From Tubulanus polymorphus (Eukaryota > Animalia > Nemertea): a DNA stretch of 64,000 nucleotides. The position numbers and the translations under genes were made by a program. A model generated the notes under the pieces. That model ran no database searches. It was not told where the DNA came from and saw nothing but the letters and a program-made list of their open reading frames with translations. Positions within the stretch are counted from its first letter, which is position 1. Each line of letters begins with the position of its first letter. Positions 1 to 38,706 of the stretch are shown here, piece after piece. The stretch lies in the NCBI RefSeq assembly GCF_964204645.1, contig NC_134036.1, forward strand, positions 9,279,859 through 9,343,858, read 5' to 3'.

Positions 1-50
1 TAAATCATTGAACTTCTAAAATCAATTTTAATAAAAAATATAGTATTAAA

Positions 51-3000: not shown

Positions 3001-4083
3001 AATTATCAAAAAAGAATTAAACCCGATAATCATATTCATACTGAAAAGTTAATGGTAACTCAAGAAGATAAATATAATTATGTAGTACATTATAGAATGT
3101 TGAAGTTTTATTTGAATCAAGGAATGATATTAAAAAAAGTACATAGATATATTTCATTCAGTCAATCTAAATGGTTAGAAAAATATATAGATTTTAATAC
3201 TACACAGAGAACTAAATCTAAAACTGATTTTGAAAAAGATTTTTTTAAGTTAATGAATAATGCATTCTATGGTAAGACTTGTGAAAATATTAGAAATAGA
3301 AATGATATCGAGTTAGTCAGTAATGGTAAAAGAATTAGGCATTTACAATCATATCCTAAGTTTATAGGTAACAGAATATTTGATGAAAATTTAGCAGCAG
3401 TTAAAATGAAAAGAACTTCAATGAAGTTCAATAAACCTATTTATGTTGGTGCTGCAGTTCTAGAAATTTCAAAATTCCTAATGTATAAATTTTACTATAA
3501 CATATTACAACCCCATTTTGGAGAAAAACACATAGAAATTCTATACTTTGATACCGACAGTTACATATTAAAGATAAAAACTGATAACATAACAGATGAT
3601 TTAAAAACATTAAAACACCATTTTGATTTTAGTAATTATCCTAAAAATCATGAATTGTTTAGCAATGATAATAAAAAAGTTCCTGGGAAGTTTAAGGATG
3701 AATTAGGTGGTGAAGAAATGATAGAGTTCATTGGTATTAGATCTAAAATGTATTCATATAAAACCAAAACTCATGAAGCTAAAAAGTTAAAAGGAATAAC
3801 CAAAAGTGTAGTAGAAAAAAATATTCATTTTAAAGATTACATCAATTGTATATTTAATGAAGAAGTTAGAAAACATAAGATGAAATGTTTAAGATCTGAA
3901 GATCATGAAATGTATATTGAAGAGATAGAGAAGATAAGTTTGAATCCATTTGATGATAAAAGATATATTTTAGATGATGGAATCCACACAGTCGCCTATG
4001 GTTGCAATTTAGATGAATATATAAAATTCAAAAGAGAAGAAACAAAAGAAAATGAGATTATGAAAAGGATTCTAACGTGTTAA
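51..4083 (+). pseudogene. polB: Protein-primed family B DNA polymerase with N-terminal Zn fingers, OTU-like protease motifs and endonuclease VII-like insert; two lesions
   Basis: Motifs YIDANNLYGWAM, KLMNNAFYGK, YFDTDS; exonuclease YGDFES and FHNLSGYD; CYYC..RDHNHLNGKFRGAAHENCN; QNEDDKCFLW/HYMWIK. Premature TAA at 1554-1556 (Tyr in copy 2) and +1 frameshift near 2170. Confidence 0.93.
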
Positions 4084-4111
4084 TCAATTTCAATAAAAAT
4101 TTGTATAATAA

Positions 4112-4453
4112 ATGGAGAGTAAACAAGTACACAGTGAATTCTTAGATAGAATTAAAGATACTTCAAGCGTCAAATCTGTAGATTATAAATTTAAAAAACT
4201 AACTGAGTTAACAATTCACAAGAAATATTTAATTACTAACATTGAAACAATTACTAATAAATATGGAGATAAATTAGTAATTCATTTAGAATATGAAGGA
4301 TTAAAAGGAAATAAATATAAATTCAGAACTTATTTACCAGATAGATTTCATAGATTATCAAGTGAAGATCTAGAAGAATTATGTTCTGGAGATTTCTATT
4401 TCGTATATAAAGGTAAGAATGAAAAAGGGCACCATGAAATAGATTTCGAATAA
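4112..4453 (+). CDS. Conserved 113-aa protein, possibly an OB-fold ssDNA-binding protein
   Basis: Intact ORF with TAAATG start, conserved in copy 2 (50205-50564). The fold is a guess from its beta-rich pattern and position next to polB. Confidence 0.6.
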   Translation: MESKQVHSEFLDRIKDTSSVKSVDYKFKKLTELTIHKKYLITNIETITNKYGDKLVIHLEYEGLKGNKYKFRTYLPDRFHRLSSEDLEELCSGDFYFVYKGKNEKGHHEIDFE

Positions 4454-4470
4454 GAAAATATGTAAAATAA

Positions 4471-5226
4471 ATGGTAGAATTAAAAGAATACAGAATATTT
4501 GTAGATTCTAGAAGGCTTACAAATTATAAATCTCATAATTTACTAGTTCAATTAGATAGAGAATTTAAGAATTGTGTAGATTTAAAATTAGTTAATATAA
4601 GTTTATGTAATTCTTTTTATAATATATCGGATAAAACTTTTGAACATAGAGGGTTTATGATTTATATGAGAAATAAAGATAAATGGTTTCATATATTTTT
4701 AAAACCAGGATTATATAATTTAGAATCATTAGCGCAGGAAATTAATAGAAGGGCTCGGTTGAAAATCGGGGGCACTTCTGTATTTGAAATTAAATTTAAT
4801 AAAATTGATAGTACTAATAAAATAAGAATAAAGATATCTAATGAACAACATAAATTTATGGTAAACAAACCACTGGCTAAAATGTTAGGAATTAAACCGC
4901 TTACAGTTACTGGAAACGCAGAAGGCAGCTCAAATATAATACCTTTTACACACTTTTATATTTATTGCAATTTAATCGAGCCTACAAAAACTTTCGAAGC
5001 AACTAAAGAAACAATTTGTAGTTCTAGTATACTAAATATTTTACCGCTAAAAAATGTTAAACAATTTGGAACTCAAATAAATTATAATTTAACAGAATGT
5101 GATTTTAAACCATGCATTCCTAAATTTAATAATTTTAAATTAGAAATAAGAAATCATAATGGATACTTAATTGATTTAAATAACTTTCCTGTGATATATG
5201 AATTAGTTATAAGATGTAAAGAGTAA
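4471..5226 (+). CDS. Minor capsid protein (penton, single jelly roll)
   Basis: Pattern IFVDS..., NSFYNI, LKPGLYN, YIYCNLI, LEIRNHNGYLIDLNNFPVIYELVIR is typical of Polinton pentons. Confidence 0.8.
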   Translation: MVELKEYRIFVDSRRLTNYKSHNLLVQLDREFKNCVDLKLVNISLCNSFYNISDKTFEHRGFMIYMRNKDKWFHIFLKPGLYNLESLAQEINRRARLKIGGTSVFEIKFNKIDSTNKIRIKISNEQHKFMVNKPLAKMLGIKPLTVTGNAEGSSNIIPFTHFYIYCNLIEPTKTFEATKETICSSSILNILPLKNVKQFGTQINYNLTECDFKPCIPKFNNFKLEIRNHNGYLIDLNNFPVIYELVIRCKE

Positions 5227-5242
5227 TTTTTTTGATATATAA

Positions 5243-5563
5243 ATGAATATAACGGTTGGACCGAGTATATGTTTTGGATTTGATTTTAAACGTGAGAAAG
5301 AAATGAAATTTAACATTAATGATGTAATAACACATATTAAAAATATTGCATTTTCTAATGAAACAACATTTGAGTATGAAACAACAATTGATAAAGAAAC
5401 TTTAAATATAGAAAAGATTACTAATTTAATTAGAGAATCTTTAAGATTTTATGAATTAGATGAAGATTTTATCATCGATGATATTAAAAAAATAATAATT
5501 GAAATATATGATAATCATAAAACTAGTAATGAAATAAATGTTGAATTAATCATAAATAAGTAA
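5243..5563 (+). CDS. Hypothetical acidic 106-aa protein
   Basis: Intact ORF tightly packed in the element, TAAATG start. Confidence 0.7.
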   Translation: MNITVGPSICFGFDFKREKEMKFNINDVITHIKNIAFSNETTFEYETTIDKETLNIEKITNLIRESLRFYELDEDFIIDDIKKIIIEIYDNHKTSNEINVELIINK

Positions 5564-5602
5564 ACTAAATATTTTGATGATAGAAATTTTTTTGATTAAT
5601 AA

Positions 5603-5824
5603 ATGAGTGATAATAAGTGGATAATAACTGGATTATATAATGGCGCATTACTATCAGTTGGAACTGTTGGTTATTCAATGGTATTAAAAAAAGTATTCAA
5701 AATGGGAAGTGTTAATGTTGATAGATTTGATATAAATGATATTTTAAAGTTAACATTAGCGGTTACTTTATCTAATTTAACTATTGATTATTTAGAAAAA
5801 CAAAAATATATTCCTCCCATATAA
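5603..5824 (+). CDS. Small hydrophobic (membrane) protein, 73 aa
   Basis: Two hydrophobic segments, TAAATG start. Confidence 0.7.
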   Translation: MSDNKWIITGLYNGALLSVGTVGYSMVLKKVFKMGSVNVDRFDINDILKLTLAVTLSNLTIDYLEKQKYIPPI

Positions 5825-5848
5825 ATGCATAATTTCTTTGCTAAATAA

Positions 5849-6271
5849 ATGGCTTCTGCAATTATAACTATTATAGGATCGGCAATTGTTAACGCTTTAG
5901 CATTTACTGGTGGTGGTTATTTATTTAAACATATTGATAAAAATAGTTCATTAGGAGAACAAAGAAGACATAACTTAGCGTTAGAGAAATATAATAAAGC
6001 TGCAGAAGAATATAGAGAAAAAAGACAAAACTATATGGATTACATCAATAAAGAATTATATGATCAGAAGATTTCACATAGAGATTTTCAATCAGTTGAT
6101 GATGCAATGAGTTTATATAACGCGGTAACCAATAAAGAAAAATTACATCTATACAAACCTAAATTATCAGATTATTATACCCCAAGTAAAGAACAACAGA
6201 AATATGAAATAATATGGATTTTAGGTGGAACAGTTATTGTTATATTTGTTGCTTATAAGTTTACTAATTAG
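5849..6271 (+). CDS. 140-aa membrane protein (hydrophobic N-terminus, coiled coil, C-terminal TM)
   Basis: MASAIITIIGSAIVNALAFTGGGYLF and IIWILGGTVIVIFVAY segments. Confidence 0.75.
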   Translation: MASAIITIIGSAIVNALAFTGGGYLFKHIDKNSSLGEQRRHNLALEKYNKAAEEYREKRQNYMDYINKELYDQKISHRDFQSVDDAMSLYNAVTNKEKLHLYKPKLSDYYTPSKEQQKYEIIWILGGTVIVIFVAYKFTN

Positions 6272-6290
6272 TAATTTTTATTCTAAATAA

Positions 6291-6725
6291 ATGGAAGATA
6301 AAGTTGATAGTATTGATATTATTCCTCATGATATAAATAAAACTAAATTAAAAATATATTTAGAAAAACAAATATTAGAATTTGAAAGTGACTTAAAGAT
6401 AAAAAAGAAAAAATATTTAAAAAGTAAAATTATATATTATTTGATTATAAGTGGTTCGGTTACAATTAGTTCTGTAATAACATTTCTAGCAATATTCAGC
6501 CCATTAACACCTTTAGCTATATCAATTGGTGTATTAGGATTAAGTTCAAGTGTTTTAACTGGTATAAGTTCAAAATTAAATATAAAAAGTAATAAAGAAA
6601 AAATTAAAACTAATATAAAAGAAATTAATAAATTAAAGAACACACTAGATTATATAATAAGTTTAAATGGTCATATAACAGTTGAAGAACAAGATAAATT
6701 ATTAAAAGAATTAATAAATTATTAA
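6291..6725 (+). CDS. 144-aa two-TM protein flanked by coiled coils
   Basis: Central hydrophobic hairpin IIYYLIISGSVTISSVITFLAIF / LAISIGVLGLSSSVLTGIS. Confidence 0.75.
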   Translation: MEDKVDSIDIIPHDINKTKLKIYLEKQILEFESDLKIKKKKYLKSKIIYYLIISGSVTISSVITFLAIFSPLTPLAISIGVLGLSSSVLTGISSKLNIKSNKEKIKTNIKEINKLKNTLDYIISLNGHITVEEQDKLLKELINY

Positions 6726-6741
6726 TTTTTTAGTTATATAA

Positions 6742-8070
6742 ATGGGGTTTCCAAAAGCTTTCCAATATAATAAATCAATTAAATATAATATTCCGGCAAT
6801 AGATTTTAAGAAAAATATTACATATAAAAATATAGTTTTAAATTCATTAACTAATTTAGAAATTTATGTTACTGAATCACAGTTTTTTATTTCTAAAATG
6901 GAAAATATATTTAATACATATGAAGTTACTTTTACTCGAGATGAATATAATATATATAAAGTAAAATCTAATATGAAATATTGGCAGAATCAATTAAATT
7001 TTGCTGTTTATTGTGCAACAACAGGATGTGGAATTAGTTGGAATGATCATTTAAATAACTTAGATAAAAATTTGAAGTATTCTGATTTAAAATTAATTCA
7101 CACAATATTTAGATTTCACACATATTTTCAAATCAGAATAATATTAAATGAATTAGAATGTCCTTTACCTGGGTCTAAATATTTTAAAGAATTGGATAAT
7201 AATATTAATATATCCAAGTTTTATAAAATATGTAATGAATTTAATATAAATATTAATTCCGATTTTAGAGCGCATGGTAAATTGCAAGGTGTCGGTGAAC
7301 AGTATGAAATAAAAAGAATTGATTATATGCATAGAATTGGAGCTTATCATAATTATAAAATTGATAATAATAATGGTTGGGTTAATTTCATTTTAGAAAA
7401 TGGTGAAGGTTTTACAAAATCAGGTATACAAAGAATAAATCAATCTATTAGAATTTATTTGATATGTATTCTAGGCGCTCAAGTTGAAACAAGATCCCCA
7501 ATAATTGGAAATGATAACACTTCATTCGATGCGCAGAAACAGTTTAAAGTTTTATTTGAAGATTCAATTCATAATGATAAAAATAGATCGATTCCAGAAA
7601 ACATTATAAGATATCAAAATTATTTAGATAAATCTCATGTAAGACTTAATTATTGTATAGGCCCTAATCTATTAATTATTTCTAATGATTTAGTATTGAA
7701 GATGGGAAATATAATTGGTTATAATAATCTAATTAAAACTGCAACAATAAATAATTCATTTGGATTAAATGATATAAATAAAAAGATTATTACTGCCCCA
7801 AAATTAATGGAAGGTGAAAAAAATAAAAAACATATTCAATCAACAGAAACTAAAACTAAGAATATTAAATTAAATAATGATTCCAAAATAAAAGATTACA
7901 ATACATCAGAAAATGGTGCCGTACGGCACCCACACGGTGATAATAGAACTGATAAAATTCAACATGATATAATTAAACAAAATGATGATAATAAATCACA
8001 TGAAAATACTAAATTAGCTATAACTTGTATAGGAATTGTAATCGGAGGAATATTATATTTTAAATTTTAA
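6742..8070 (+). CDS. Conserved 442-aa protein with C-terminal membrane anchor
   Basis: Long intact ORF with core MKYWQNQLNFAVYCATTGCGISW conserved in copy 2 and C-terminal LAITCIGIVIGGILYF. Confidence 0.8.
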   Translation: MGFPKAFQYNKSIKYNIPAIDFKKNITYKNIVLNSLTNLEIYVTESQFFISKMENIFNTYEVTFTRDEYNIYKVKSNMKYWQNQLNFAVYCATTGCGISWNDHLNNLDKNLKYSDLKLIHTIFRFHTYFQIRIILNELECPLPGSKYFKELDNNINISKFYKICNEFNININSDFRAHGKLQGVGEQYEIKRIDYMHRIGAYHNYKIDNNNGWVNFILENGEGFTKSGIQRINQSIRIYLICILGAQVETRSPIIGNDNTSFDAQKQFKVLFEDSIHNDKNRSIPENIIRYQNYLDKSHVRLNYCIGPNLLIISNDLVLKMGNIIGYNNLIKTATINNSFGLNDINKKIITAPKLMEGEKNKKHIQSTETKTKNIKLNNDSKIKDYNTSENGAVRHPHGDNRTDKIQHDIIKQNDDNKSHENTKLAITCIGIVIGGILYFKF

Positions 8071-8086
8071 TTTTTTTATTATGTAA

Positions 8087-9760
8087 ATGGATGTAGAAGG
8101 TGGAGAAGATATTCCATTGGATCCTTTAGATGAACCTGGTATAAGTGATGAACAACAACCTGATTTTGATGAAACAAGTTTCAGTAATGATAATAAAACG
8201 GCATATAATACTAATTTAGGTGAAGATGATGATTATGATGATGATCCCGAATTACGTGAAAAATTAAATAAATATTTAGAAGCTCCTGAAAGGGGTAGAA
8301 TTTCAACTAGAACAGAAAGAAAAGAATTTATGAAACTATTAGTAAAACAACAAGAAAAATATCCTGATAAACCTATGGAATTATATAAAATGAAATCTAG
8401 AGTAACAGATACAATTGTTAACGAATTACTACCAATAGCTGTAATAGATGAAATTGATACTGAAGATATTGTAGAACAAATTTTTAAAGATGACCCATAT
8501 TTCACGAATAATTTAGAATTTAAAAATGATTCATGGTATTATAATCTTGAATTAAATAGGAATACTGTATCAATTCAATTATCTAGAATGGGTCAAGAAA
8601 ATATTTTTGAACCTGGAATGCGAGCATTATCTACAATTGAAGGTTCAAAAGGTGGTAGAGAATTTCTCAGAATTATATGGAATGCAATCGATAGAATAAA
8701 TGAAAAAGAACCAATTCCTAATATTGATATAAACAAATATTCACCATTTAAAAATCCAAATCCAAATCCTACTGATTTTGATCCAGAAATGGAAGAGAAT
8801 AGAAATCGATTAGATAGATTAAGATCTTCAACACCCGAAACATCGAGAAGAGACACTCAACAAATTGATAATGATTCAAGTAAATTACAATTAGAAAAAC
8901 AAATTGATAGATTAAGAGATTCAGAAGAAGAAATGAATAGTACTGGAATAAATCGACTGCAATATTTACTAGAAAAAGGATTATTTGATTTAACTGATGA
9001 TGAATTAGAAGCATTTCCTGAACAAACACGTAGAGAAATTAAAGGTACGCAAGAATCAGCTGATAAAATTGCGCATGATAAAAGTATAAGAGATTTTAAA
9101 ATTAGAACTTTAGAAAAAGAATTAACTGATAAAAATAAAGAAATAGAACAATTAAAATTAGATAGAGATAATAAAGTTATTGAAGAAATTGAATTTAAAA
9201 AAAGAAATGCATATTTAGAAAAAGAAATTGATGATTTAGAATATAACATAGAATTACAAAAAGAAGAAATTAAATTATTATTAAAATCATATGATTATAA
9301 TATTAATAGATTAAAAGTTATTTTTAAAGATTTGTTGATTAAACCAAATTCTGAAATATCATTAAAAGACAGAATAAAGTTATTATTTAAATTAGAAGGA
9401 ATAACAATTCTTTCAATTCTAACAGCTGTAACTATGTTATTTACAACAATTGGTTTAGCAATATCAAATGCTTTGAAATCTACTCCTACTCCAAATAAAC
9501 CAGATAAACCTCCAGGCAATAATTCTATACAAGATAAAGTTAAAGATGGTTTAAAGAAATTAGCAAAATATTTATGGGAACTATCAAAGAAATCTGCTGC
9601 AGCCTTACCAGGAGTTATTGCTTCAATTGTTGGTTTTATATTGAAATCTGCAGGAAACATTATTAACTTTGCTGCTGAACATATTATTTTATTTTTAATT
9701 ACAGTTGTAAGTGCTATTATTTTTGGTTTAGTAAATATGATATCAAAAAATATCAAGTAA
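8087..9760 (+). CDS. 557-aa coiled-coil protein with multi-helix hydrophobic C-terminus (candidate membrane-active virion protein)
   Basis: Acidic N-terminus, long heptad region, three C-terminal hydrophobic segments highly conserved in copy 2. Confidence 0.8.
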   Translation: MDVEGGEDIPLDPLDEPGISDEQQPDFDETSFSNDNKTAYNTNLGEDDDYDDDPELREKLNKYLEAPERGRISTRTERKEFMKLLVKQQEKYPDKPMELYKMKSRVTDTIVNELLPIAVIDEIDTEDIVEQIFKDDPYFTNNLEFKNDSWYYNLELNRNTVSIQLSRMGQENIFEPGMRALSTIEGSKGGREFLRIIWNAIDRINEKEPIPNIDINKYSPFKNPNPNPTDFDPEMEENRNRLDRLRSSTPETSRRDTQQIDNDSSKLQLEKQIDRLRDSEEEMNSTGINRLQYLLEKGLFDLTDDELEAFPEQTRREIKGTQESADKIAHDKSIRDFKIRTLEKELTDKNKEIEQLKLDRDNKVIEEIEFKKRNAYLEKEIDDLEYNIELQKEEIKLLLKSYDYNINRLKVIFKDLLIKPNSEISLKDRIKLLFKLEGITILSILTAVTMLFTTIGLAISNALKSTPTPNKPDKPPGNNSIQDKVKDGLKKLAKYLWELSKKSAAALPGVIASIVGFILKSAGNIINFAAEHIILFLITVVSAIIFGLVNMISKNIK

Positions 9761-9829
9761 ACCATGATATCAAAAAATATCAAGTAAACCATGATTAAAA
9801 ATAAATAATTAATTTTTTTTGTTAAATAA

Positions 9830-11077
9830 ATGAGTGGGAGTTATATAAGTCCTTCTAAGATTTCTAGAATATCTAATGCTATTAAAGCAGAAAGATCACA
9901 TCATATAATTACTCATAACCCTTCAAATATTAATCCCGATGAAACGTTATATGTTAGAATTCCTCGATTAACACAAAATACTTTTTATGTTCCAAATAGT
10001 ATTTATTTATCAGCTGATATAAAAGTAATCGGTAATAATAATAATTATGTCGTTGATAATGTTGGAAGATATTTGATTAAAAAGTTAACAATAAAGATTG
10101 GTCCGGAAACAGTTTTCTCATTAGATGATTATAATTTATTTATGCATTATAAAGATTTATGGTTAACTAAAGAAAATAGAAATAATATGATATTTCAGGG
10201 TATTCAATCAGAAAACCAAAATAAATTAAGATCAGAAGCTAATAGCGCAATATTAACAAATGATGTAGATAAATTGATAAAAAGTATATATGGAAGTAAA
10301 TATAAAATTCCATTAGATTTTGAATTGATAAATAATAATGCACCTTTATATAAATACGCAATTCAAGAAGATATTATATTTGAGATAACATTTGCTCCTG
10401 TAAATGAAATTGTATTATCTAGCGTTAATAAAGATATGAGTTATAAATTATCGAATATATGTTTAGAATATGATACAGTAACTGATGAAAATATTTCAAG
10501 TATAATTCAAATTCAATACAATCAAGGGTTTTCATTATTATATGATTATATTGATAAATTTAAAACTGTAACTATTAATGCAAATGATGAAATAATTAAT
10601 GAGAATATTAACTTCCCTAGAAGATCTATTAAAGGTATATTAATATTTTTTACCATTGGAACGTATACTAATGGCGCAATAAATGTTGATAATTATTATA
10701 ATCCTGAAATAACAAAAGTAGAAATAACTATCGAAGGAATAGCGAATAAAATATTTTGTCAAGGAATGAGAATGATTGATCAATGGGTAGAAATTAAAAA
10801 ACATTTTATGAATGAAAAAATAAAATCATTTGAAAATTGTAACATTAATCAAATTGATTATTATACCGGTAATAAATATGCATTATGGTTAGATTTTAGA
10901 ACAACTGAAGATAATTCATTACATGGTTCTGGAAAAAAATTACAAAATACAAAAGATGGAATACAATTATTCATGACAAAGAAAAAGGGAATCAAAAATT
11001 TTAAAATGCATATTTATATTTTATCTGACGCGCAATTAAATATTGTAAATTCACAATTAGATAGTGTTATGTATTAA
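9830..11077 (+). CDS. Major capsid protein (double jelly roll)
   Basis: 415 aa, beta-rich, with NPSNINPDETLYVRIP, NVGRYLIKKLTIKIG, INENINFPRRSIKGILIFF, LWLDFRT, LHGSG; strongly conserved in copy 2; size and context fit. Confidence 0.85.
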   Translation: MSGSYISPSKISRISNAIKAERSHHIITHNPSNINPDETLYVRIPRLTQNTFYVPNSIYLSADIKVIGNNNNYVVDNVGRYLIKKLTIKIGPETVFSLDDYNLFMHYKDLWLTKENRNNMIFQGIQSENQNKLRSEANSAILTNDVDKLIKSIYGSKYKIPLDFELINNNAPLYKYAIQEDIIFEITFAPVNEIVLSSVNKDMSYKLSNICLEYDTVTDENISSIIQIQYNQGFSLLYDYIDKFKTVTINANDEIINENINFPRRSIKGILIFFTIGTYTNGAINVDNYYNPEITKVEITIEGIANKIFCQGMRMIDQWVEIKKHFMNEKIKSFENCNINQIDYYTGNKYALWLDFRTTEDNSLHGSGKKLQNTKDGIQLFMTKKKGIKNFKMHIYILSDAQLNIVNSQLDSVMY

Positions 11078-11109
11078 AATTTTAACTTTAATAAAAATGT
11101 ATATAATAA

Positions 11110-12099
11110 ATGGAAGGAGGTAAAGTATATAAACATATTCCATACATCGATACACATGAAAATAATGATGGTTTATATTATGTAATACCTTGTAATATAG
11201 CATTGATATTTGATCCTATTTTTAAAAATTATAAAACTAAACTGATAGAAATCGATAATAATAAAAGTGGTGTTGTTGATAATTTAAGTAATGTAATACC
11301 TACTACACCTATAATACCTACTACTACACCTGTAATACCTACTACTACATCTGTAATACCTACTACTACATCTGTAATACCTACTACATCTGTAATACCT
11401 TCTACATCTAATAACGTAATACCTTCTACACCTGTAATACCTTCTACATCTAATAATGTAATACCTTCTACATCTAATAATGCAATAATATTAAATGTTA
11501 GTGAAAATAGAAATTATTGTGGTTATTGTAATGGTGAATTTTCAAACGCTCCATCAAATTGGAATAAACATATGAATACAAATTCACATATTACTAATGT
11601 TATAGAACGTGTTGGCAAAAAAGAATTTATAGAACACCCATTTAGATATGTTACAAAATTTGTTTCAAATAAAAAAGTAAATGGTAAAGAATTATATAAA
11701 GATTTATTATTAGCAACACCTAATAACGATGAATTAGATTTAACCGATGCTAATGAAATATTAGGATCAAACACTGTAAATGAAATATTAGGAGCAAACA
11801 CTAATAAAGATAATAATGAAAATGGTGCCATACAGCACCCACAAAGTGATATAGTTACAGATAAACATATTGATAATAAATATTCTATGAAACATGAAGA
11901 AGAAACTATTGATGATATAATAGAAAGGATGAATAAGCATAACAATGAAACAACTATTGATGATTTGGTAAAAAAGGTGAAAAAGGTGGAAAAAAATTAT
12001 AAAGATGTTGATGTAGATTCGGTAGAGCAGTTAAATATGTTGTTAGGGTCGTCTGATAGTGAAAGTGATTCAGAAATTAATTATCTAACACTCGAATAA
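11110..12099 (+). CDS. Variable protein with VIPTTTS/VIPSTS repeats and a C2H2 (matrin-like) Zn finger
   Basis: Tandem repeats at ~11290-11480; CGYC...WNKHMNTNSH. Confidence 0.75.
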   Translation: MEGGKVYKHIPYIDTHENNDGLYYVIPCNIALIFDPIFKNYKTKLIEIDNNKSGVVDNLSNVIPTTPIIPTTTPVIPTTTSVIPTTTSVIPTTSVIPSTSNNVIPSTPVIPSTSNNVIPSTSNNAIILNVSENRNYCGYCNGEFSNAPSNWNKHMNTNSHITNVIERVGKKEFIEHPFRYVTKFVSNKKVNGKELYKDLLLATPNNDELDLTDANEILGSNTVNEILGANTNKDNNENGAIQHPQSDIVTDKHIDNKYSMKHEEETIDDIIERMNKHNNETTIDDLVKKVKKVEKNYKDVDVDSVEQLNMLLGSSDSESDSEINYLTLE

Positions 12100-12238
12100 T
12101 AAAGGTTGAAAATTATATAAAATAATAGTAAATAAAAAAAGGTTTTAATTATTTAAGGTATCTAATAGGGTATCAGGTATTAGGGCATCTAATGGGGTAT
12201 TAGGTATTAAGGTATCTAATACATAGGTATACAAATAG

Positions 12239-12853
12239 TTATTTTATAAATTTATATTCATATGGAAATTGTAATCTCATAAGTAATTTGGAACCTTTAT
12301 TATTCTTTAATTTATTCATATATTCATCATGTAATTCAGTAGGTATAATTTGATTTTCTTCTAATGATTGTTGCATAGATTTTTTATCTTTGTTATAAAA
12401 TAAAACTAGAAATCTTATATTCTCTCTAAAATCTTTCACAATTGAATTATATTTTTGATTTAAAACCCATGTTGTTATCCCAAAATGTCTACCAGAGAAA
12501 GCTAAATAACATAACTCACTTTCTCTAACTTTTGAATCATGTAAATTTGCGCAATCATCAATAATAAATAATGTATTAGATCCTTTATAAATATCTATTG
12601 CAATTTTTATACAATTATCTAAATTATCTTTCACTGTTTTAGAATTTAATATAATAAACTTTTTATCTTTAAAAACTATATCTCTATTATACGTTTCATT
12701 CATTTCATAAGTAGGACAGAATAATATTATATTATCAAAATGATTCTTATAAATAGTTTCTAACAAGTCTAATATGAAGTGTGTTTTACCACAATTTGTA
12801 ACTCCAGTAACTAACATATTATGTGGTTCAAATATAAATAAATCTTTATTCAT
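12239..12853 (-). CDS. A32/FtsK-like DNA packaging ATPase
   Basis: Walker A GVTNCGKT, Walker B FIIDD, and GRHFGITTWVLNQ. Confidence 0.92.
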   Translation of the reverse strand: MNKDLFIFEPHNMLVTGVTNCGKTHFILDLLETIYKNHFDNIILFCPTYEMNETYNRDIVFKDKKFIILNSKTVKDNLDNCIKIAIDIYKGSNTLFIIDDCANLHDSKVRESELCYLAFSGRHFGITTWVLNQKYNSIVKDFRENIRFLVLFYNKDKKSMQQSLEENQIIPTELHDEYMNKLKNNKGSKLLMRLQFPYEYKFIK

Positions 12854-13931
12854 TTATTCTTTTAATTTTACTAGATAAAATCCATTCATTGAATTTATCA
12901 TCATATCCTTTATATTTCACCAAAGAATACTTTTTTCCTTTAAGAGTTTTAGTTTTTAATACTTTTTCTATTTTGTATTCTATTTCATCTGGATTTGGTA
13001 CAAGTGATAATTCTTGTTCATAGAAATAACCTAATATTTCTTCATCTTTTAGATCTTCTAATTTATAAACAAATGGTTTAGTTAATATTATCTTTTTAAT
13101 TTTAAATATTTCTTCAGTAAAATTAGGGGTATAACCTTTATAAAATGTTTTTCTATATTTAGAAATTCTAACGTGTTGTCCTATTTTAAATTTAGGTTCT
13201 CCAAAATCATGTGTAACAAACGCACCATATAAATTATTCCAAACTATTTCTGAATTTTCTTCTTTTCTAGCTTGTATAGGTTTCATATTTATAGAACTAT
13301 GTTTAGAATTATTATAACCTTTAACTAAATCATCTAACACATCGATATATTTATATGTTTCATTAGCGGTGAAATATTTCCACATTCTAGTTTTCAATGT
13401 TTTATTAAATCTTTCTATAACGGATGCTTTTTTATCTGAATGTGTTGAAAAATATTCTACATCGTTATCAGATAATAGTTTTTTGAAATGTTTGTTATAA
13501 AATTCTTTACCTTCATCAAATTGTATTTTATCTGGGATAGCTTCTTTAAATATTAATTTGAAAGAATTTGTAACTTCTATACCAGTTTTATTTTTAATCG
13601 GGATACTCCATGCGTATCTACTGAATATATCTATAACATTTAGTATCCAAAAATATCCTTTGTTATATTCTTCTAAGTTTTTCATGTCAATTAAATCAGC
13701 TTGCCATTGTTGGTCAATATATGAAACCATTACTTTTCTTGTTAAATATTTTTTATCCATCTTTTTATGAATTTGATATGTGGGTTGATTTTGTAACCAT
13801 GATTTTAATTCACTATATTTTATTTTTTCTTTATCAGATTTAATTTTATCCCATAATTCTGAAACGTTAGAATATGATACTTCACGTTCTGGGTTGTAAT
13901 ATAAATCTCTCAAATATTGTTCTTTTTTCAT
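12846..13931 (-). CDS. Retroviral-like DDE integrase with C-terminal chromodomain
   Basis: WQADLID, IDIFSRYAW, QFDEGKEF, VIERFNKTLK; chromodomain YKIEKVL...LVKYKGYDDKFNEWI. ORF intact. Confidence 0.95.
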   Translation of the reverse strand: MKKEQYLRDLYYNPEREVSYSNVSELWDKIKSDKEKIKYSELKSWLQNQPTYQIHKKMDKKYLTRKVMVSYIDQQWQADLIDMKNLEEYNKGYFWILNVIDIFSRYAWSIPIKNKTGIEVTNSFKLIFKEAIPDKIQFDEGKEFYNKHFKKLLSDNDVEYFSTHSDKKASVIERFNKTLKTRMWKYFTANETYKYIDVLDDLVKGYNNSKHSSINMKPIQARKEENSEIVWNNLYGAFVTHDFGEPKFKIGQHVRISKYRKTFYKGYTPNFTEEIFKIKKIILTKPFVYKLEDLKDEEILGYFYEQELSLVPNPDEIEYKIEKVLKTKTLKGKKYSLVKYKGYDDKFNEWILSSKIKRINE

Positions 13932-13937
13932 CTTATT

Positions 13938-14333
13938 TTAATCCATTAATAATAATCTTGGTTTATTTTCAATGACTTTATCATTTGACTTATTTTCTGG
14001 TATGATAGGTTTATTGTCATTGGAATCATCTTTATCATCAGATTTGAATTTTGATTTATATATTACACCAGATAATATAATAACTGTTACTAATCCAATT
14101 GTAATATATAATTTATAATTACTTCCAGCATTAGAAGAATTAGATGGATTATTATTTGAATCAATACCACCGTGTGGGTGCCGTACGGCACCATCAGATA
14201 ATTTCTGTGATTCATTTATATCAGTTAATTTCTTTTTCTTAGCTTTTTTTAATTCTGATGATCTTTTACCTAATTCTCTTGCCCATTTAATTTGTTTCTC
14301 GGATCTAGCCTTTTTCTTAACTCCATCACTCAT
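13938..14333 (-). CDS. 131-aa basic protein with one TM segment
   Basis: Lys/Arg-rich N-terminus and LYITIGLVTVIILSGVIY; ortholog in copy 2. Confidence 0.75.
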   Translation of the reverse strand: MSDGVKKKARSEKQIKWARELGKRSSELKKAKKKKLTDINESQKLSDGAVRHPHGGIDSNNNPSNSSNAGSNYKLYITIGLVTVIILSGVIYKSKFKSDDKDDSNDNKPIIPENKSNDKVIENKPRLLLMD

Positions 14334-14928
14334 TTATTTTAGTTAATTTTTGTTCTGATTCATTTTCTGTTTCGACGTTTGGTTGTAGTACATCTGTTTC
14401 GTTCTTACCTGATTTATATTCCATAGGTTTGATGTTCGAAAATGTTATGACGCCAGTAGAAATCAATGTCATAACCGATCCTAATTGAAATGAAGCATAA
14501 CCGACCCATTTTTGTAATTCAGTCATAACTAAGTAGTCATTTTTCAAATCATTATATAATTTATTTTCATCATCAATTGGTATTAACTGGTTACATAATT
14601 TTGAATAACATTTGACAATACCATTCGAAATAGAATCATTTATTTTAGATAATCTTGCCTCTTCATAAATCTTAAAATATTTTATTACTTTTTCTTTATT
14701 CATATTATCTAATTCTTGAAAAGTTGTTGTTTTACCAATAAACTCTTTAGTTTTTCCACTCGCAATCAATAGTTCTAGATGATGCTTACAATATAAATAG
14801 TATTCATAATCTATATTGTTATTAACTTGAATAGAATTAGAAACAACTGTATCCTTATTATCACTAATACCTAAATCATCTAATGTTTTTTCAATATCAA
14901 TACTATTCTTATTAGATTTCTTTGACAT
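14326..14928 (-). CDS. Conserved 200-aa hypothetical protein
   Basis: Intact ORF with an ortholog in copy 2; 8-nt overlap with the next gene. Confidence 0.75.
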   Translation of the reverse strand: MSKKSNKNSIDIEKTLDDLGISDNKDTVVSNSIQVNNNIDYEYYLYCKHHLELLIASGKTKEFIGKTTTFQELDNMNKEKVIKYFKIYEEARLSKINDSISNGIVKCYSKLCNQLIPIDDENKLYNDLKNDYLVMTELQKWVGYASFQLGSVMTLISTGVITFSNIKPMEYKSGKNETDVLQPNVETENESEQKLTKINE

Positions 14929-15176
14929 TTATATTAGAGAAATTTAATAAGAATAGTATTATAAGTATTATAAAATGATACTAGCTAGTTAAAGTTAAAG
15001 AATTCTAGTATTGACTACTGATACTAGCTATTTGAATTTAAAGAATTTCTATTCGGATCTATTCAAAATATAAAGTATTCTCTTTTTGAAAAGAAAATAT
15101 TAAAAATATAATAGAATTCGATAGCTAGTTGAAGTGATTGTTTTTTAAATACTTTTTATTTAAAATCTATTATTCT

Positions 15177-15839
15177 TTAACCACTCATTAAAGACTCAAC
15201 GTATTGTTCATTATGTGTTGAATTCCATAATTCAATAAATTTTTTTACTTTTTCCAGTTGATTCAAATATAACTGTAAATCTATTCTATTAGATTTGATT
15301 TGATTTTCTTTCTTTTCTAAGGTCTTAAATTTTTCCAATTCCAAATAAGTTTTTTATTGTATTCATCGTTCCTTTTTAAATTTAGATATTGGTAACACGT
15401 GATCAATATGAAAGTATTCACCGTAATTATCTATATTCATTTTATCATCGAATTGAAATATAATCCATGATTTGAGAAATTCATCTGAACAACCCAATAA
15501 ATTAGATAGTGTTTCTGAATATGTTTCTTTGTTAAATAATTGTGTTAATCTAGACCGTAAACATTGTTTCAATCTAAAATTAAGATCTGTTTGATATCTT
15601 TCTCTCATATATTCTGTCATATAATCATTATAAGATTCTCTATTATCTTCTCGATATTGTTTGGTATATAGTTTAATGCAAGTTTTACAGTAATATTGAA
15701 AACCATCTTTGCTAATCTTACGCTTACTAAATTCTGTTAATGATTTATCTAATTCACATTTAGAACATTTCTTGTAACATATATTTATAACACCAGTGTT
15801 ATTTGTAATATTGATAGTTTGTGGTTGTTCTGGTTCCAT
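15177..15839 (-). pseudogene. HNH endonuclease with N-terminal CxxC..CxxC Zn ribbon, frameshifted near the 3' end
   Basis: CSKC...KDG...CKTC, FHIDHVLP, and downstream WNWKNL frame as in copy 2; ends YVESLMSG*. Confidence 0.8.
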
Positions 15840-15974
15840 TTATTATACGTATTTTTTTACTAAATTGGTTAATAATTTATAATCCTCTTCTATTTCTTCG
15901 ACTAACGTTATCCTTTTTCATTCCTAGCTGCTTTTGATAAGTTTTTTCGATTCCTTGATATATAAATAATACAA

Positions 15975-16295
15975 GCGGCCGGCCATTTATGGCCGGTTTT
16001 GCTTAATGCGCATGCGTTAAACATAATTATAAATTCATTCTATAAATTCTGTAAAATAGAAACAACACATGCGTTACATGCGGCCATTTATGGCCGGTTT
16101 TGCTTAATGCGTATGCGTTAAACATAATTATAAATTCATTCTATAAATTCTGTAAAATAGAAACAACTGAATATAGAAAATTCAAACGCATTCATGTTCT
16201 CGTCACATACGTTACATGTGTCAAATGCGTCACATGCGGCCATTGATGGCCGGTTTTGCTTAATTCGCATGTGTTAAACATAATAGAAACGACTG
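15975..16295. repeat. Three ~100-bp tandem GC-containing repeats in the non-coding arm of copy 1
   Basis: CGGCCATTTATGGCCGGTTTTGCTTAATGCGCATGCGTTAAACATAAT at ~15980, ~16081 and ~16237. Confidence 0.85.
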
Positions 16296-17248
16296 AACAT
16301 AAAAATTCACAAATCAGATTTACACAATACATTATACAAGTTGTTCAGTCATTTCTTCTAATACATCATTTGATTTCTATAAATACAATTTATAATTACA
16401 AACATTTTTTCAATTGCTGGTAAATATTTAACTACATCAACAAATGTTAAACTAAATCATTGGAGTCTTAATGTTTTTGAAATTCTTATATTTCTTCTTC
16501 GATCTTTTAGCGATTCTATTGGTTTGATATCCACCGGTTTGTGCGTGTTTAATTTGACACCAGTTCCACAGTTGTATATAGGTTTATTTGACTCTGGGCC
16601 TAGTTCCACAGTTATCTAAAAGATATATCAAAATATAAATTGCTACACATAAATATATTTAAAGGTTTCATATTTAGCGGCCTTAATAAACAAAAACTGT
16701 ACTTACATTTAACTCGCGAACTGTAAACTGTATATGATGTGGCGTTTATGAGACTGTTATGATACAGCGTTTATGAGAATATCCTGGTTATGACACAATG
16801 TTTATGAGACTATATCCGTTGAAAAGCGATCGATATATGCTGGTATTTCGTTTTGTGTGTATACGCAACTAATTGCTTTTCACCCGTAGACTGTCAAGCG
16901 TCTGATGTGCGCGCCTATTTATACTATTCTATGCTCAGAAACATCTAGATTAAGTGTGTTGAGACTTGCGAATTATGAGATTTTTGATTGGTTAGAGCTT
17001 AGTTGTCCAGAAACATCTAAAAAGCGCGTTGAGACTTGTAAATTATGAGATTTGTGATTCGCTAACGTCCGCCGTATGATGTATAATACACAACGCGTTG
17101 AGACTTGTAAATATAGTTGAAAAAAATCAATAATAAAGGCATTTAGATCAATGAAATTAATTAACTCTTTACAATTGAAATATAAGCTGGTAACATATGT
17201 TTACTAGAGCTAATACAACCAACTATATAGCTGAGTATTATCAGGCGT

Positions 17249-17422
17249 TTATAACGATTCAACATATTTTTCACTATATGTTGAGTTCCTTAATTCGATA
17301 AATGTCTTTGCTTTAACCAACTGGACTAAAAACAAATGTGTTCTAGTTTTATTGTGTCTTGCTTTTTGGGATTTATCTATATCGATATTACATGTTGGGC
17401 AGTAGTACTTATTTGCTTCCAT
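17249..17422 (-). CDS. 57-aa chimeric mini-ORF: PolB N-terminal Zn finger fused to a copy of the HNH C-terminal tail
   Basis: Hand translation MEANKYYCPTCNIDIDKSQKARHNKTRTHLFLVQLVKAKTFIELRNSTYSEKYVESL*; below the ORF-track size cutoff. Confidence 0.55.
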   Translation of the reverse strand: MEANKYYCPTCNIDIDKSQKARHNKTRTHLFLVQLVKAKTFIELRNSTYSEKYVESL

Positions 17423-17706
17423 TTTAATACTATATTTTTTATTAAAATTGATTTTAGAAGTTCAATGATTTATATTTTATTCATATATATATGAATATGA
17501 GTAATAGGGGTTTAGTTGTTTCATATCAAAGGTCGAAAGGTTGAGGTTGATAAATTTTCCAAATGTTAAAATAATAATAATTTCTACTTGAATTAGGAGT
17601 GTACGCGACTAATTCAAGTAGAAATTATTGTTATTTTAACATTTTGGAAAATTTCTCGGGCTCGACCTTTCGACCTTTGGTATGAAACAACTAAACCCCT
17701 ATTACT
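17334..17706. repeat. Right terminal inverted repeat of copy 1, ending in a 207-bp near-perfect palindrome (17500-17706)
   Basis: Matches the reverse complement of 1-139; arms 17500-17596 and 17609-17706 are complementary. Confidence 0.9.
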
Positions 17707-18001
17707 CATGTATATATGGCATTGCATTGTAATAGTGAAGTCATTGTATTTCTCAAAGCAGTCGTTGTAAGGCAATAACAATTTAATATTTTTCATGCAT
17801 TATTTCGATTAGAGTATCGAAAATATTGGAAAATTGAGATGATATTTTCAGGGTTGTTGCATAATGACAAAATACCTACCTTTTATTTGCTCTATAAAAT
17901 CGACAAAATACCAGCCAATAACAGCAGGGTCATTATTTGTATTGCTTACGTTGAGCCAAAGAATCCTCCTAGAATAACTATACATTGGAGCAATACCTTA
18001 G

Positions 18002-25554: not shown

Positions 25555-28500
25555 CACGTACGTACAGACAATGCTAAGAATAAGAGACCTTGAAGTTTCG
25601 CGTAATTGTTGTGACCTTTAAGGAAATCAATATTATTCGGTGGCCGCGAACAAATCTATTGCGCGCGATCACCATCTTCAGCAAGACGTGGAGTCATCCT
25701 CGCTAGACACGATGGTTAAAATATCGGAGTGTATCATGAATTGGTTGCCTTTGAAACGATTCCAGTTGCTTTAATGGGTGTCATTTGTTAATGTAAGTAA
25801 AGAATTACGTTTGTGGCCGTTAATGGTGTATGTTTGCTGCATGTTGACCCAATAAATGTAAAAATACGACTGAATTTGTTTACTTACTTCCGGGTTCGCT
25901 GAAACCCGGAAATATTTCCACTTCAAATTCTTAACTCAGACCGCGGCCTATATTGAAGTAATTCTGTTAAGATGTCAACCCATAATGAAAAAAAGATTCG
26001 TATCAACAGTTAACCGCATTCACCTTCAGGCCTAGCTCATCGATGGGCCTATTTCATGTATTGAAGTGCAAACTGTCAGATAATTTGACCCGTCCCAGGC
26101 TAGTAAATTCCCTCAGTTATTTGTTTTTTCGGGGCAGTCGAAGCAGGGATGGGTTGTGACCACAATGAATTGTAGTAAGAGTTGTAATATTGTCAGGTAG
26201 GCCTAGAGAGTGGGCGATAATCTGATAATCTGTGGCAATCGACGCCGTGCGATTATAGTCAATCTAGGCCTAAAGCCTCCAGTACATTTCGTAAGCCCTA
26301 TCATATTATATATTACAGGTTTTTTTAAGACAGCAAATGTTTTTCAAAGGGGACAGACAAAGCTATTCAAGTAAGTTTAATCGATCGCCATTCTCATAAC
26401 AATACAAGCATGAAAGCCCTGCTCGCAAGTAGAACAATATCTGTAAATAATTTTTATGACTTTTTAGTGTATTATTTATTGAAAAATCTTGTTATTTCAG
26501 ATTTACCGCCTCGTATCGGAGACGATATTTTTGAAAAAAATCCGCACTGGCATTTACGGACAATTGGACTACGCTTATTCGAATTAGTTGCATAAAGTGC
26601 CGAACTAGTGTCGTACGTTGGATATCGTGATTTGAACAATTCACGAACATCTCTAGAGCAATACTAAGAATAAGCTTCGCGCACTCATCGTGACCTTTTA
26701 GGAAATCGATATTTTTTGGTATCGAAGAAGGGGTTGCGGTTAAAAGTGTTTCATTGCTTTCATCTGCCAACTGCATGTCACTTTTCGCTGATTTTCTCCT
26801 AGAGCCTGTTAGATTGATTGAAAGAACATTCTACTCATTAGATAAAAACTTAAGGTACAACCCAGTAATTATTGTAAATAAAATTCATATGGTGCAGCTT
26901 GCACGAGCGTACTTTAAAAACTGTTAATGCAACTAACATTTTGTAATATTACAATTTAAAACATAAAGGTATCAGCATTTTTTGCTTTTAATTAATTATA
27001 TATAAGGTAATACATGTATTTAGTTTGACGCAATTTGTCTATTGTGAAACAATGATTTCAATAAATTCTATGTCTACCACTTGCTGAAAATGGAATAGTT
27101 TTAAATTTGTTGGTATGTTGCATGCAGAGGAAATTAAATGATTAATTAGGCAAAAGAAAAATTAACCAGTCTGTCATCAGATAGAAATTGTTAGTGATAA
27201 TTCGATATTTCACCATGTCAAATGCTACCACTTTTGGAACACTATTTTGACTAACAATTGTCCTGTAACAAACTTCAATTTCACTCAAGGACAGACTCAA
27301 GTTAGTTTGAAAATGAACTTGGAAATAGTCAAGAAACTCACCTTTATAATACAGCTGTCAGAACCACACTTCTTTTACAAAAACTTTATCCTGAGACTCA
27401 TTTCCTTTCACTTATTGTAAATAATTTATACACAGGGTACCCATAATATACGATATGTTAGAGGAATATTTCGATCCAGATACATTCTTTATGAATAAAA
27501 TTACCATCCTGCTATAAATTTGATCCAAGAACCCCAAGTAACCTTTCTTGAATTAGATGGCTAAGAAAGACAAACACAGTCATATATAATTTTTGAAAGG
27601 TTTTTATTGAAACAACAATATGAATTGAAAATGATGGATGTATAAAAGAAAAAAACAGTCAACATATGTAAAATTAGAGAATTGATCAACTTGAATTTTT
27701 ATCAACTAGTCTTTAACAAACATTCAATGGAACATTGTCAAAATAAACTTCACAGCAATTAACAAAATTGATCGGTAAATTGACTGTCTGCTATAACGAG
27801 CAGTATTCCTTTTATTGCGAATTATATTTTTCACTAACTATTATACACCGGAGTTTGTTAGAACAACAGTTCCATTGAATTTACAATCTTTCAAATACAA
27901 TTGACTTGATTTTTTGGCATTATTTCACAAGGTTACCACCAATTGCGGAATTAAGAAATCATTGCCAATCTTTGCCATAAGTCATTTTTAATTATCAGAG
28001 CAACTTTCCAAAATCATAATCAGGGTAGAGTCATAATGTAATGAACAATAGAAAAAAATATCAACATCTAATACAAAATGCTGCAGAATCACTTACTATG
28101 AAGCTTAGCCATTTTTTCTTTAAATGATATTTTTTTCCACGCTGTACCATAGTAGATCTTTCTTGCAGAACCCAACATGCTGGTAACCTTCCCAGCTACC
28201 CTGCCCCAGGGCTCGCGGTCTACTGCTTTCTGACCTACAAAAAATTACACAATATATCAATGTATGTTCTAACTATAGGCCTAAAAATTTCTTTAAATCC
28301 ATTGACTTACCACTGTGTTCAACAATTACTGAATCCTTTCAATGATTACGACTAGGTTTGACGATTACAACTTCGTTCAACGATTACGACTCGTTTAACG
28401 ACTACGACTCTGTTCATCGATTACGACTTCGTTCAGCAACTACGCTTCCGTTAAACGATTACGACTCCATTCAGCGACTACGACTCCGTTCAACAATTAC

Positions 28501-29889
28501 GACTCCGTTCAGCGACTACGACTCTGTTCAACGATTACGCTTCCATTCAGCGACTACGACTCCATTTAACGATTGCGACTCCGTTAAACGATTACGACTC
28601 CATTCAGCGACTACGACTCCGTTCAACGATTACGCTTCCATTCAGCGACTACGACTCCATTTAACGATTGCGACTCCGTTAAACGATTACGACTCCATTC
28701 AGCGACTACGACTCCGTTCAACGATTACGCTTCCATTCAGCGACTACGACTCCGTTCAACGATTACTGAATCCCTTCATCGATTACGACTCTGCTCAATC
28801 CTTTATGACGAACCCGACTATGTTGAAAAACAAATCTATTCCGACTATGACAAATACATCTACAATTACAAAAAAAGTACCAATAGTTATTACCATTTGG
28901 AGGCCCGAGAGACCTCAAATGCAATGGACCTAGGCCTATACATTAATCAAACTACATGTATTTGATTTGGTAATTTTACAAGGTCGAAAGGCCGTAAAAG
29001 GCTTATACTATATGAAATAGACAGACTTGATAAGCGCCAAGGCTCGAGAAACTATAGTAGACGATAGAGGCCTATCACTCGCCCACCTAGACTGCAACAA
29101 TTTCTAGTTTAGGCCTATATAAGTGTCATTTTTGCTGTCTATGAGAATGGGTTGTTTTGAAGTTGAAGACATATCACTATTAACACATAAAAGCTCCTGC
29201 GTTAAACATAACTCTGTCGAATAAAATTTAATTTTGCTTGATTTTGAAAACCATCTTAATTTTCACTTCTTTTTTAACAAGGACACAATTTCACTTGAAT
29301 AGAATGAAATCTAATTGATCTCAATCAACTGTTTAAAATACTTAACAGTAGAAATAAGCAGTTTAGTGACTATGTGCAATGTAAAAAGACGAAACGTAAT
29401 ACGATTATTATGGGCGCCAAAAAAATTTTTAATAATTGTGCAAATTTACAGACGAGTGTCACTTTTTTGACATTATACAATGACAGAGACCCATAAAAGT
29501 ACATAGTTATAGAAACTACATGCTAATATCTAGTTCGTCACATTTTGTTTTTTTAAGTTAGGCCTGTTGTATGGATAGAAATCGCACATTTGTAGCGGAA
29601 AATGTCGAAAATTTTATTTCCGGGTTACGAAATTCAGGATTGACAAAAAACGAGAATGTTAATAGAAATTCCGAAAATTCTACGAACTAGTGGCGGATGT
29701 TTACTAAAAATCTAATCATATTAGGTTCGAATCCCACATTTACTGACGATGTATTCGGAGCACTCCCGAGTCACTCCAAGTCTATATCTCACAGCATTAG
29801 CACAAAATGGCGCGAAGCTCAGCGCGCGATATCGATTAATACGATCAATAATTAAAGTTGGCGAGATTCGTATTGTCTGTACGTACGTG
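25555..29889. mobile_element. 4.3-kb cut-and-paste DNA transposon, CAC...GTG ends, 4-bp TSD (Chapaev/CMC-like)
   Basis: Perfect 18-bp TIR CACGTACGTACAGACAAT; TGTT duplicated at 25551-25554 and 29890-29893. No intact transposase seen, so the superfamily is inferred from ends and TSD only. Confidence 0.85.
28320..28795. repeat. 19-bp minisatellite (ACGATTACGACTCCGTTCA variants)
   Basis: More than 20 tandem degenerate units inside the transposon. Confidence 0.9.
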
Positions 29890-38276: not shown

Positions 38277-38626
38277 AGTAATAGGGGTAATGGGCTTTCA
38301 GATCAAAGGTCGAACGGTCGAGCTCATTAAAAAACAAAACATTAAAAGTAATTTAAAACTATAATATATTTTCATAACCGTGTGCATTTTATATTATAAC
38401 TAAATATTTATTCTAAGATATCAATAATTTAAAAAGCATATTGATTTATTTACAATACACAAATTCATATAATCAAATATATTCAAATAATAATAATTAT
38501 TCTATTATTCAACTGAAATACACACGGTTATGAAAATATATTATAGTTTTAAATTACTTTTAATATTTGTTTTTAATGAACTCGACCATTCAACCTTTAA
38601 CCCGAAAGCCCATTACCCCTATTACT
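38277..38626. repeat. Terminal fold-back of copy 2 (arms 38277-38389 and 38516-38626, AT-rich spacer)
   Basis: Arms aligned by hand. Confidence 0.9.
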
Positions 38627-38706
38627 CTTAAAATATTCATATAAATGAATAACATTTAAATCATTGAACTTCTAAAATCAATTTTAATAAAAAATTTAGT
38701 ATAGAA

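Follow-up and report, generated by a model that had tools for sequence, protein, structure and literature searches.

The window analysed here, 64,000 nucleotides of Tubulanus polymorphus DNA, opens within a Polinton (copy 1, 1-17706), which is recognized by domain matches, a match between terminal inverted repeats (TIRs) and the fold of its major capsid protein (MCP), and whose left tip lies just outside. The element carries a family B DNA polymerase of the protein-primed type (pPolB; 51-4083, + strand) in three broken ORFs (51-1556, 1806-2192 and 2161-4083), which matches PF03175 in Pfam (E 9.5e-15) and in which domain and structure matches identify zinc fingers, a terminal protein (TP)-like domain, vOTU-like Cys and His residues, Endonuclease_7 and DNA_pol_B_2. 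Named relatives of this polymerase come from insects and a spider, at 27-35% identity. In addition, there is a 415-aa protein at 9830-11077 (+) with a predicted double jelly-roll capsid fold, which matches the PBCV-1, iridovirus and mavirus MCPs (E to 1.8e-16), an A32-type packaging ATPase at 12239-12853 (-; Pox_A32, E 2e-12) and an rve integrase with a chromodomain at 12846-13931 (-; rve, E 6.7e-9). The element has in common with the Polintons/Mavericks (Polintoviricetes; adintoviruses) a pPolB with TP-like and vOTU-like domains, the integrase, the ATPase and the double jelly-roll MCP, together with TIRs, a length of about 17-18 kb and tips starting with AG, as the available text of PMC11071308 and 10.1101/2023.08.22.554363 describes them. 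No Ulp1/adenain-like maturation protease was detected by Pfam among 17 proteins at E 0.01, a scan of the longer, unbroken ORFs.

The segment at 17334-17499 is the interior of the right TIR of copy 1 and includes the start of the polymerase gene; it is 96% identical to window positions 1-139 and 93% identical to both TIRs of a second copy. Because it matches the first 139 bases of the window, the palindrome beyond it, described below, is the outer part of the right TIR. With the hairpin included, the TIRs measure about 370-520 bp and their tips start with AGT, where Polintons are defined by TIRs of 100-1500 bp that start with AG. Since the TIR contains the first ~30 polymerase codons (17334-17499, 1-139, 38627-38795 and 54409-54577), the far end of each element carries a truncated gene start with the first zinc finger. 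Further inside, non-coding subterminal tandem repeats of about 100-130 nt, which differ between the copies, lie at 15980-16323 and 39761-40096 and have GC-rich palindromic cores of the GCGCATGCG type, while a degenerate second copy of the polymerase-upstream sequence at the end of the polymerase gene (4082-4130 and 50546-50595) is a possible shared promoter motif.

Copy 2 extends from 38277 to about 54711 in inverted orientation, with a body 82-95% alike to that of copy 1. Its right end stops at 54711 directly after the inner arm of the TIR hairpin (54578-54711, +, by sequence match); it lacks the loop, the outer arm and the tip, and no match to the element is seen over the following 5.4 kb. 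A third, partial and more diverged copy occupies 60127-64000 (73-91% to copy 1), and its ORF at 62092-62724 has a weak Intein_splicing match (E 6e-4, below the cut-off). Host minisatellites with periods of 19 nt and 8-10 nt are found at 28316-28840 and 56886-57191.

The right boundary of copy 1 was examined by aligning to 17200-17860 roughly 12% of a WGS run labelled with the same species. At 17706, 426 reads depart from the reference into flanks whose agreement is only 0.36, and read depth falls from ~930 to ~14; the TIR interior, at 1600-1850, stands 110-128-fold above that flank. From the departing reads, the mixed flanks and the excess of depth it follows that 17706 is the terminus of a family inserted at many sites. 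With Polinton genes to its left, this bears out the earlier note, which had taken the structure for a Polinton terminus.

Immediately inside this terminus, 17500-17706 folds into a single stem of -89.8 kcal/mol on the + strand (DNA parameters; z -23.9), a value equalled by none of 200 shuffles, while the - strand folds at -81.7 kcal/mol. The T-rich inner arm of 97 bp (17500-17596, +) is followed by a 12-nt apex (17597-17608, +) and by an outer arm (17609-17706, +) that is flush with the terminus, according to the arm alignment and the reads, and whose - strand, followed inward from the tip, gives AGTAAT. The earlier note had described the last 207 bp as a near-perfect palindrome whose terminal sequence recurs internally, with T:G pairs at five of seven stem substitutions on the strand that ends 3' at the tip. 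All of this is borne out: the terminal 11-mer is found again at 17500, and the seven substitutions between the arms comprise five T:G, one G:G and one T:C on the + strand, with the T of all five T:G pairs supplied by the inner arm; a 1-nt bulge, which the note does not mention, is absent in 229 of 544 reads. The note also centred the palindrome on GTAC, and the axis does lie in GT|AC (17601-17604) within the loop, but this centre is not conserved, as 17603 is A>G in 609 of 933 reads and 2 nt are skipped there in 50 reads. On the 3'-ending strand the apex has GA at both ends, which we take to be potential sheared pairing, and loops in individual reads start with GAG or include GAGTG.

The two arms also differ in what they preserve. 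The outer arm contains a tandem GGTCGA-type repeat (17662-17678, -), shared with the outer arms of copy 2 and of the metagenomic elements L015 and L016, so that a tandem GG(T/G)CGA repeat is kept in the outer arms of four elements; its sequence makes it a candidate for an origin or an integrase site. The inner arm accumulates C>T and A>G changes, with at least one GGTTGA in each of the four inner arms seen.

The left end of copy 2 carries a terminal fold-back of 350 nt as well (38277-38626, -; z -17.5), with arms of ~111 bp and an AT-rich loop of ~130 nt, which resembles that of copy 1 over the first 47 nt only (~80%). To place these structures in a wider context, 80 of 565 confirmed metagenome loci with polymerase relatives were examined, and at least five of the 80 (L012 to L016) are close relatives at 53-70% identity. 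L015, from a different sample and with 68% pPolB identity, has a complete fold-back of 257 nt that runs from AGTAAT to ATTACT (z -13.7) and is preceded by other sequence; its apex is a C-GAA-G triloop on the 3'-ending strand only, an apex that copies 1 and 2 do not have. In L013 the inner arm and apex are visible before the contig ends, L012 and L014 end before the tip, and L016 (53% pPolB identity) has the tip and the outer motif without an inner arm, which the loss of one arm, as at the right end of copy 2, may also explain. The palindrome that the earlier note expected in other copies is thus present in copy 2, L015 and, in part, L013, but not in full in L016. The three complete fold-backs (copy 1, copy 2 and L015) differ in sequence and are all flush with the terminus, and this architecture persists at 68-70% pPolB identity (L015 complete, L013 partial). 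An extra small ORF lies between hairpin and polymerase start in L013 (338-680) and L015 (570-935), and the copies in the window are without it.

Beyond these relatives, 22 local fold-backs were found among 90 polymerase- or MCP-bearing loci, most of them AT-rich or internal. Those of L022, L033 and L071 lie near contig ends and their tips are unplaceable, so they stay outside the stem count. The distant L022 (32%) has a 250-nt fold-back at the start of its contig (3-251) with a loop made of a 12-nt tandem array; the mismatches of its palindrome are mostly transversions, and the sole transition is in the opposite sense. In IMG/VR, MCP queries returned no relatives, a polymerase alignment returned nine distant loci (25-34%), none with a clear terminal fold-back, and motif scans returned two apparently unrelated matches (contigs of 39% and 60% GC, without a fold-back), a further scan giving none. 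A single short contig matched among GTDB genomes. Capsid or polymerase relatives in prokaryote-labelled records (P0046, P0122 and L092; Bartonella sp., Sulfurimonas sp. and an archaeal MAG) probably reflect host or binning contamination.

Palindromes are prone to misassembly, and the hairpins differ between copies far more than the adjoining TIR does, as might be expected of an assembly artefact or of an independent MITE or fold-back element located at the end of the Polinton. This explanation is hardly credible, however. Three ends in the window have the structure at an identical place in the TIR, and in L015 and L013 it is found upstream of polB; the palindrome is covered by raw reads (214 at ≥99% identity), and no free-standing copy occurs within the 64-kb window. 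The fold-back is a real, family-wide feature of Polinton termini.

The substitutions between the arms indicate which strand folds. In the three complete stems, whose ends (97, 111 and 86 nt) were set by the analyst where pairing breaks down, 16 of 16 transitions form G:T pairs on the 3'-ending strand (p 3e-5), or p 1e-4 when counted as 14 distinct sites. They divide into 5/5 in copy 1, 8/8 in copy 2 and 3/3 in L015 (T:G); copy 1 alone gives p 0.06, which is not significant, and the bias is significant because the other copies add transitions. Outer-arm C corresponds to inner-arm T at 14 of 33 sites, whereas G corresponds to A at none of 55 (p 1e-7). The first column beyond the copy 2 stem is C:A, which we count against the snap-back of this strand that is proposed below.

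Ordinary decay does not account for this pattern. Decay after insertion is rejected, as seven of the eight wobble variants in the inner arm of copy 2 are common to the inner arms of both its TIRs and therefore predate the insertion. Symmetric CpG decay is rejected as well, given the difference between C>T and G>A and the 11 of 16 wobbles that lie outside CpG. Furthermore, while 14 of the 16 wobbles are C>T, the other two, both in the inner arm of copy 2, are A>G. The strand bias thus goes beyond C>T decay alone, which the earlier note had named as the explanation to be set against it. Four-fold sites are without strand skew (G:C 44:42 and 15:16), and singletons in the four TIR interiors are three T>C and one C>T.

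A different source of the bias would be single-strandedness itself. The unpaired loop of copy 2 has more G than C on the 3'-ending strand (13:4, p 0.05), and the TIR spacer is skewed on the same strand. With the loop G-rich and most wobbles of the C>T kind, a strand-specific mutation process, such as deamination at a single-stranded 3' end, may contribute. These observations count towards a by-product, in which copy-back or template switching makes and refreshes the inner arm and deamination or mismatch filtering gives the bias, with no selected function; C>T is the deamination signature on single-stranded DNA. The two A>G wobbles and the unskewed element body speak against such an origin, in which, moreover, the 3' strand would still have to be single-stranded or folded. 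Judged from sequence, both readings require a stage at which the 3'-ending strand is single-stranded or folded. There is strong sequence evidence that one specific strand folds or is single-stranded, and a function for it is predicted.

Variation among the reads of the family was analysed with the palindrome alone as reference, and 40 of the 41 variant rows at ≥9% were examined. As many as 24 of them can be joined into 12 pairs at mirror positions whose complementary changes match, some being transversions, and four of these pairs lie in the central 70 nt with both arms equally deep (38/38, 21/25, 29/33 and 31/35%). In another seven rows a Watson-Crick pair takes the place of a mismatch or wobble of the reference, two rows are unpartnered and G:T-forming (17534 C>T, 69%; 17537 A>G, 18%), one is in the loop and six are of other kinds; two of these six run in the A:C direction (17668 T>C, 19%; 17681 T>C, 13%) and are counted against snap-back. 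The reads are unphased and alignable to either arm, with a depth of ~1170 on the outer arm and 350 on the inner, so that beyond the central 70 nt cross-arm placement may create apparent symmetry, and it may also account for the two contrary rows. Position 17534 is T in 223 of 322 reads, with the partner change below 9%, and in 114 of 151 further reads when the TIR and flank are added to the reference. Reads also depart from the reference at the mirror positions 17568/17637 (~700 and ~640 reads, respectively) and 17601/17604, and joints that skip 114-128 nt produce shorter hairpins of ~90 nt. The compensatory pairs, mirror departures and shorter variants therefore indicate that the structure is conserved while its sequence and length turn over, and the covariation that the earlier note proposed to look for across the family is found, within the limits of unphased reads. 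Strand-changing joints at 17595-17601 were considered as flip/flop and set aside, as they equally fit loop variants with symmetric arms.

Compensatory changes of this kind do not in themselves require selection. Arm-to-arm conversion yields them too, and the by-product explanation can further cite the rapid change of the hairpins (heads ~80% alike, bodies 82-95%) and the missing inner arm of L016. It fits less well with the flush architecture kept in L015 and L013 and with the strand-specific GAA triloop of L015 and the GA...GA loop ends in copy 1 and in read variants. On balance, we regard a by-product as distinctly unlikely.

A selected structure could also be an RNA hairpin, formed by an outward read-through transcript and serving as a source of dsRNA or small RNA. 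G:U pairs, the counterpart of the G:T bias, are a signature of RNA stems too, and the fold-back earns generic pre-miRNA-like Rfam scores. All six Rfam matches, however, fall far below their gathering scores (best 42 versus 95 bits), the adjacent polymerase gene is on the other strand and reads inward, and the stem ends exactly at the DNA terminus, which makes an RNA function very improbable. Where the earlier note had the strand folding as single-stranded DNA or RNA, the one-strand G:T bias speaks for folding or single-strandedness of that strand, and the RNA option found no positive support.

The polymerase provides the other line of evidence on how the tip might work. Residues 124-703 of the copy 2 polymerase were modelled from a 69-sequence alignment (mean pLDDT 81.5), and the N-terminus of the model consists of a sheet and two helices in the beta/alpha order described for polinton TPs, with an invariant Ser-Gly (Ser241) located after the second helix and before the last strand. 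This is the position of the linking residue of polinton terminal proteins in the available part of PMC11071308, which also reports their relationship to Y-family polymerases. Similarly, the top Foldseek matches of the TP-like domain are Y-family polymerases over ~120 columns, including an isolated little-finger domain, although the best E value of 0.027 is weak. Conserved Cys and His residues follow the TP-like domain as in vOTU, and it is because of them that the vOTU label is used, while Foldseek with the polymerase fragment returned no OTU match. Protein priming therefore appears, from the model, to be retained.

The reading that we favour, which is plausible although we stop short of calling it probable, is that a protein-primed origin is rebuilt and repaired by a 3' snap-back. 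Once displaced during protein-primed replication, the strand with its 3' end at the tip would snap back, its 3' arm pairing with the inner arm in a short local panhandle that would replace the pairing of TIRs 17 kb apart. TP-pPolB would then prime on the folded end, which would act as a double-stranded local origin; terminal bases that were lost or mispaired would be re-copied from the inner arm, so that the arms would be homogenised and only G:T pairs would persist. The outer arm would be held by sequence recognition, the inner arm would drift only where pairing on the 3'-ending strand survives, and as the hairpin would not be transferred, arm orientation would stay fixed. What counts against the snap-back, in addition to the contrary column and rows above, is that most of the wobbles are C>T and the loop of copy 2 is skewed on the same strand, that L016 lacks an inner arm, that the one transition of L022 has the opposite sense, that the Foldseek matches of the TP-like domain are weak, and that the reads over 17200-17860 show no site where many molecules begin or end.

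Alternatively, the folded 3'-OH could prime synthesis inward by itself, giving a closed end that a nuclease would have to open, for which the Endonuclease VII-like domain is a candidate. Pairing of the 3' end falls exactly on the inner AGT, all three stems have 10-26 terminal pairs without a mismatch, and both the wobble and the GAA triloop favour the 3'-ending strand. Symmetric hairpin transfer inverts the arms in about half of the ends, as in parvovirus flip/flop, whereas asymmetric resolution of the hairpin, which may apply here, keeps a single orientation. Here the T-rich arm is inside at all four assembled ends (copy 1 right, copy 2 left and right, L015), and reads at 17534/17672 are asymmetric in the same orientation, although these are unphased and a minor inverted class is possible. 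The fixed arm orientation and the retained TP-like domain with its Ser, to which the vOTU Cys/His may be added, speak against hairpin transfer of the simple parvovirus type. Copies 1 and 2, L013, L015 and L016 all have Endonuclease_7, which suits self-priming, but the domain also occurs in L004, where the last 592 nt contain no fold-back (although the tip may be missing), and L016 has no complete fold-back either, so that an obligate link between domain and hairpin is unsupported. Self-priming has a published model for protist elements (10.64898/2026.07.28.741278, available text), and for the present family we consider it unlikely, though a serious contender; the snap-back is preferred over both it and the by-product.

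The standard Polinton model, attributed to Kapitonov and Jurka in the consulted part of PMC4196379, pictures simple TIRs at the two ends pairing with each other, so that the single strand takes a racket-like form, whereas each tip here is a fold-back of ~90-350 nt with one-strand wobble. Neither 'hairpin' nor 'palindrom' occurs in the main text of PMC8502044, nor does 'hairpin' in the nematode Polinton paper. Endogenous virophages of Halocafeteria seosinensis and PLV subtype 4 are among the closest systems, with palindromes at the TIR extremities adjoining the insertion site, an rve integrase and a proposal of hairpin priming, as given in the available text of 10.64898/2026.07.28.741278. They differ in their protist host, in the size of the 52-nt example and in being preferentially non-pPolB, while the element here has a pPolB and keeps the TP-like domain; strand-biased wobble or covariation is not described for them in the available text of that paper, supplements aside.

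The telomeres of Streptomyces linear replicons (Tpg/Tap), protein-capped linear DNA with a 3' fold-back, offer a functional analogy alone. Their 3' strand folds back into GNA loops with sheared G:A pairs (PMC5449611 and PMC4513846, in part) and is repaired by fold-back extension before TP priming (PMC5449611, in part). They differ in that their palindromes are several and short, their origin is internal and a B-family polymerase is lacking; instead of Tpg/Tap and an internal origin, the element here has a pPolB with a fused TP-like domain. Possible counterparts of their sheared-pair loops are the C-GAA-G apex in one of the three stems (L015) and by the GA...GA loop ends of copy 1. Parvovirus rolling-hairpin termini share an imperfect terminal hairpin with a paired 3'-OH, but a scan of 17 proteins, among them 15 of the 18 copy 1 ORFs of ≥120 aa, detected no HUH Rep, an Endonuclease_7 domain being present instead; the assembled ends and the unphased reads give no sign of flip/flop, and the gene set is that of a dsDNA virus. 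Casposons, in the part of PMC4046053 consulted, are self-synthesising, encode a PolB and have palindromes in some TIRs, but they are prokaryotic, use a Cas1 integrase, and their palindromes are internal and without a shown role. In the open-access literature searched, leaving aside subscription papers and Repbase reports, no long flush fold-backs with one-strand wobble were found in pPolB Polintons, nor any work on the mismatch preference of Endonuclease VII.

To conclude, the occurrence of terminal palindromes is extended beyond protist elements, which are mostly non-pPolB, to a clade that has a pPolB and keeps the TP-like domain. Knowledge of Polinton replication and excision rests largely on a sequence-based model of an end-to-end single-stranded panhandle, and the one-strand wobble is sequence evidence that, in the active element, the 3'-ending strand at the tip is in a single-stranded, folded state. 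The tip is a short substrate that can be synthesised and the readings make contrasting predictions, a 5'-linked protein as opposed to closed ends and fixed as opposed to inverted arms, and for this reason the question of replication is testable. More speculatively, and rather doubtfully, one Polinton clade, probably of animals, may have hybrid telomeres, in which a TP-primed polymerase would act on a self-priming, end-repairing 3' fold-back and the polymerase-fused Endonuclease VII-like domain would asymmetrically resolve or proofread the hairpin, with the G:T pairs as its footprint. If this is true, hybrid telomeres would represent a mode of replication intermediate between ends of the adenovirus and parvovirus types, and endogenous copies alone would suffice to read it.
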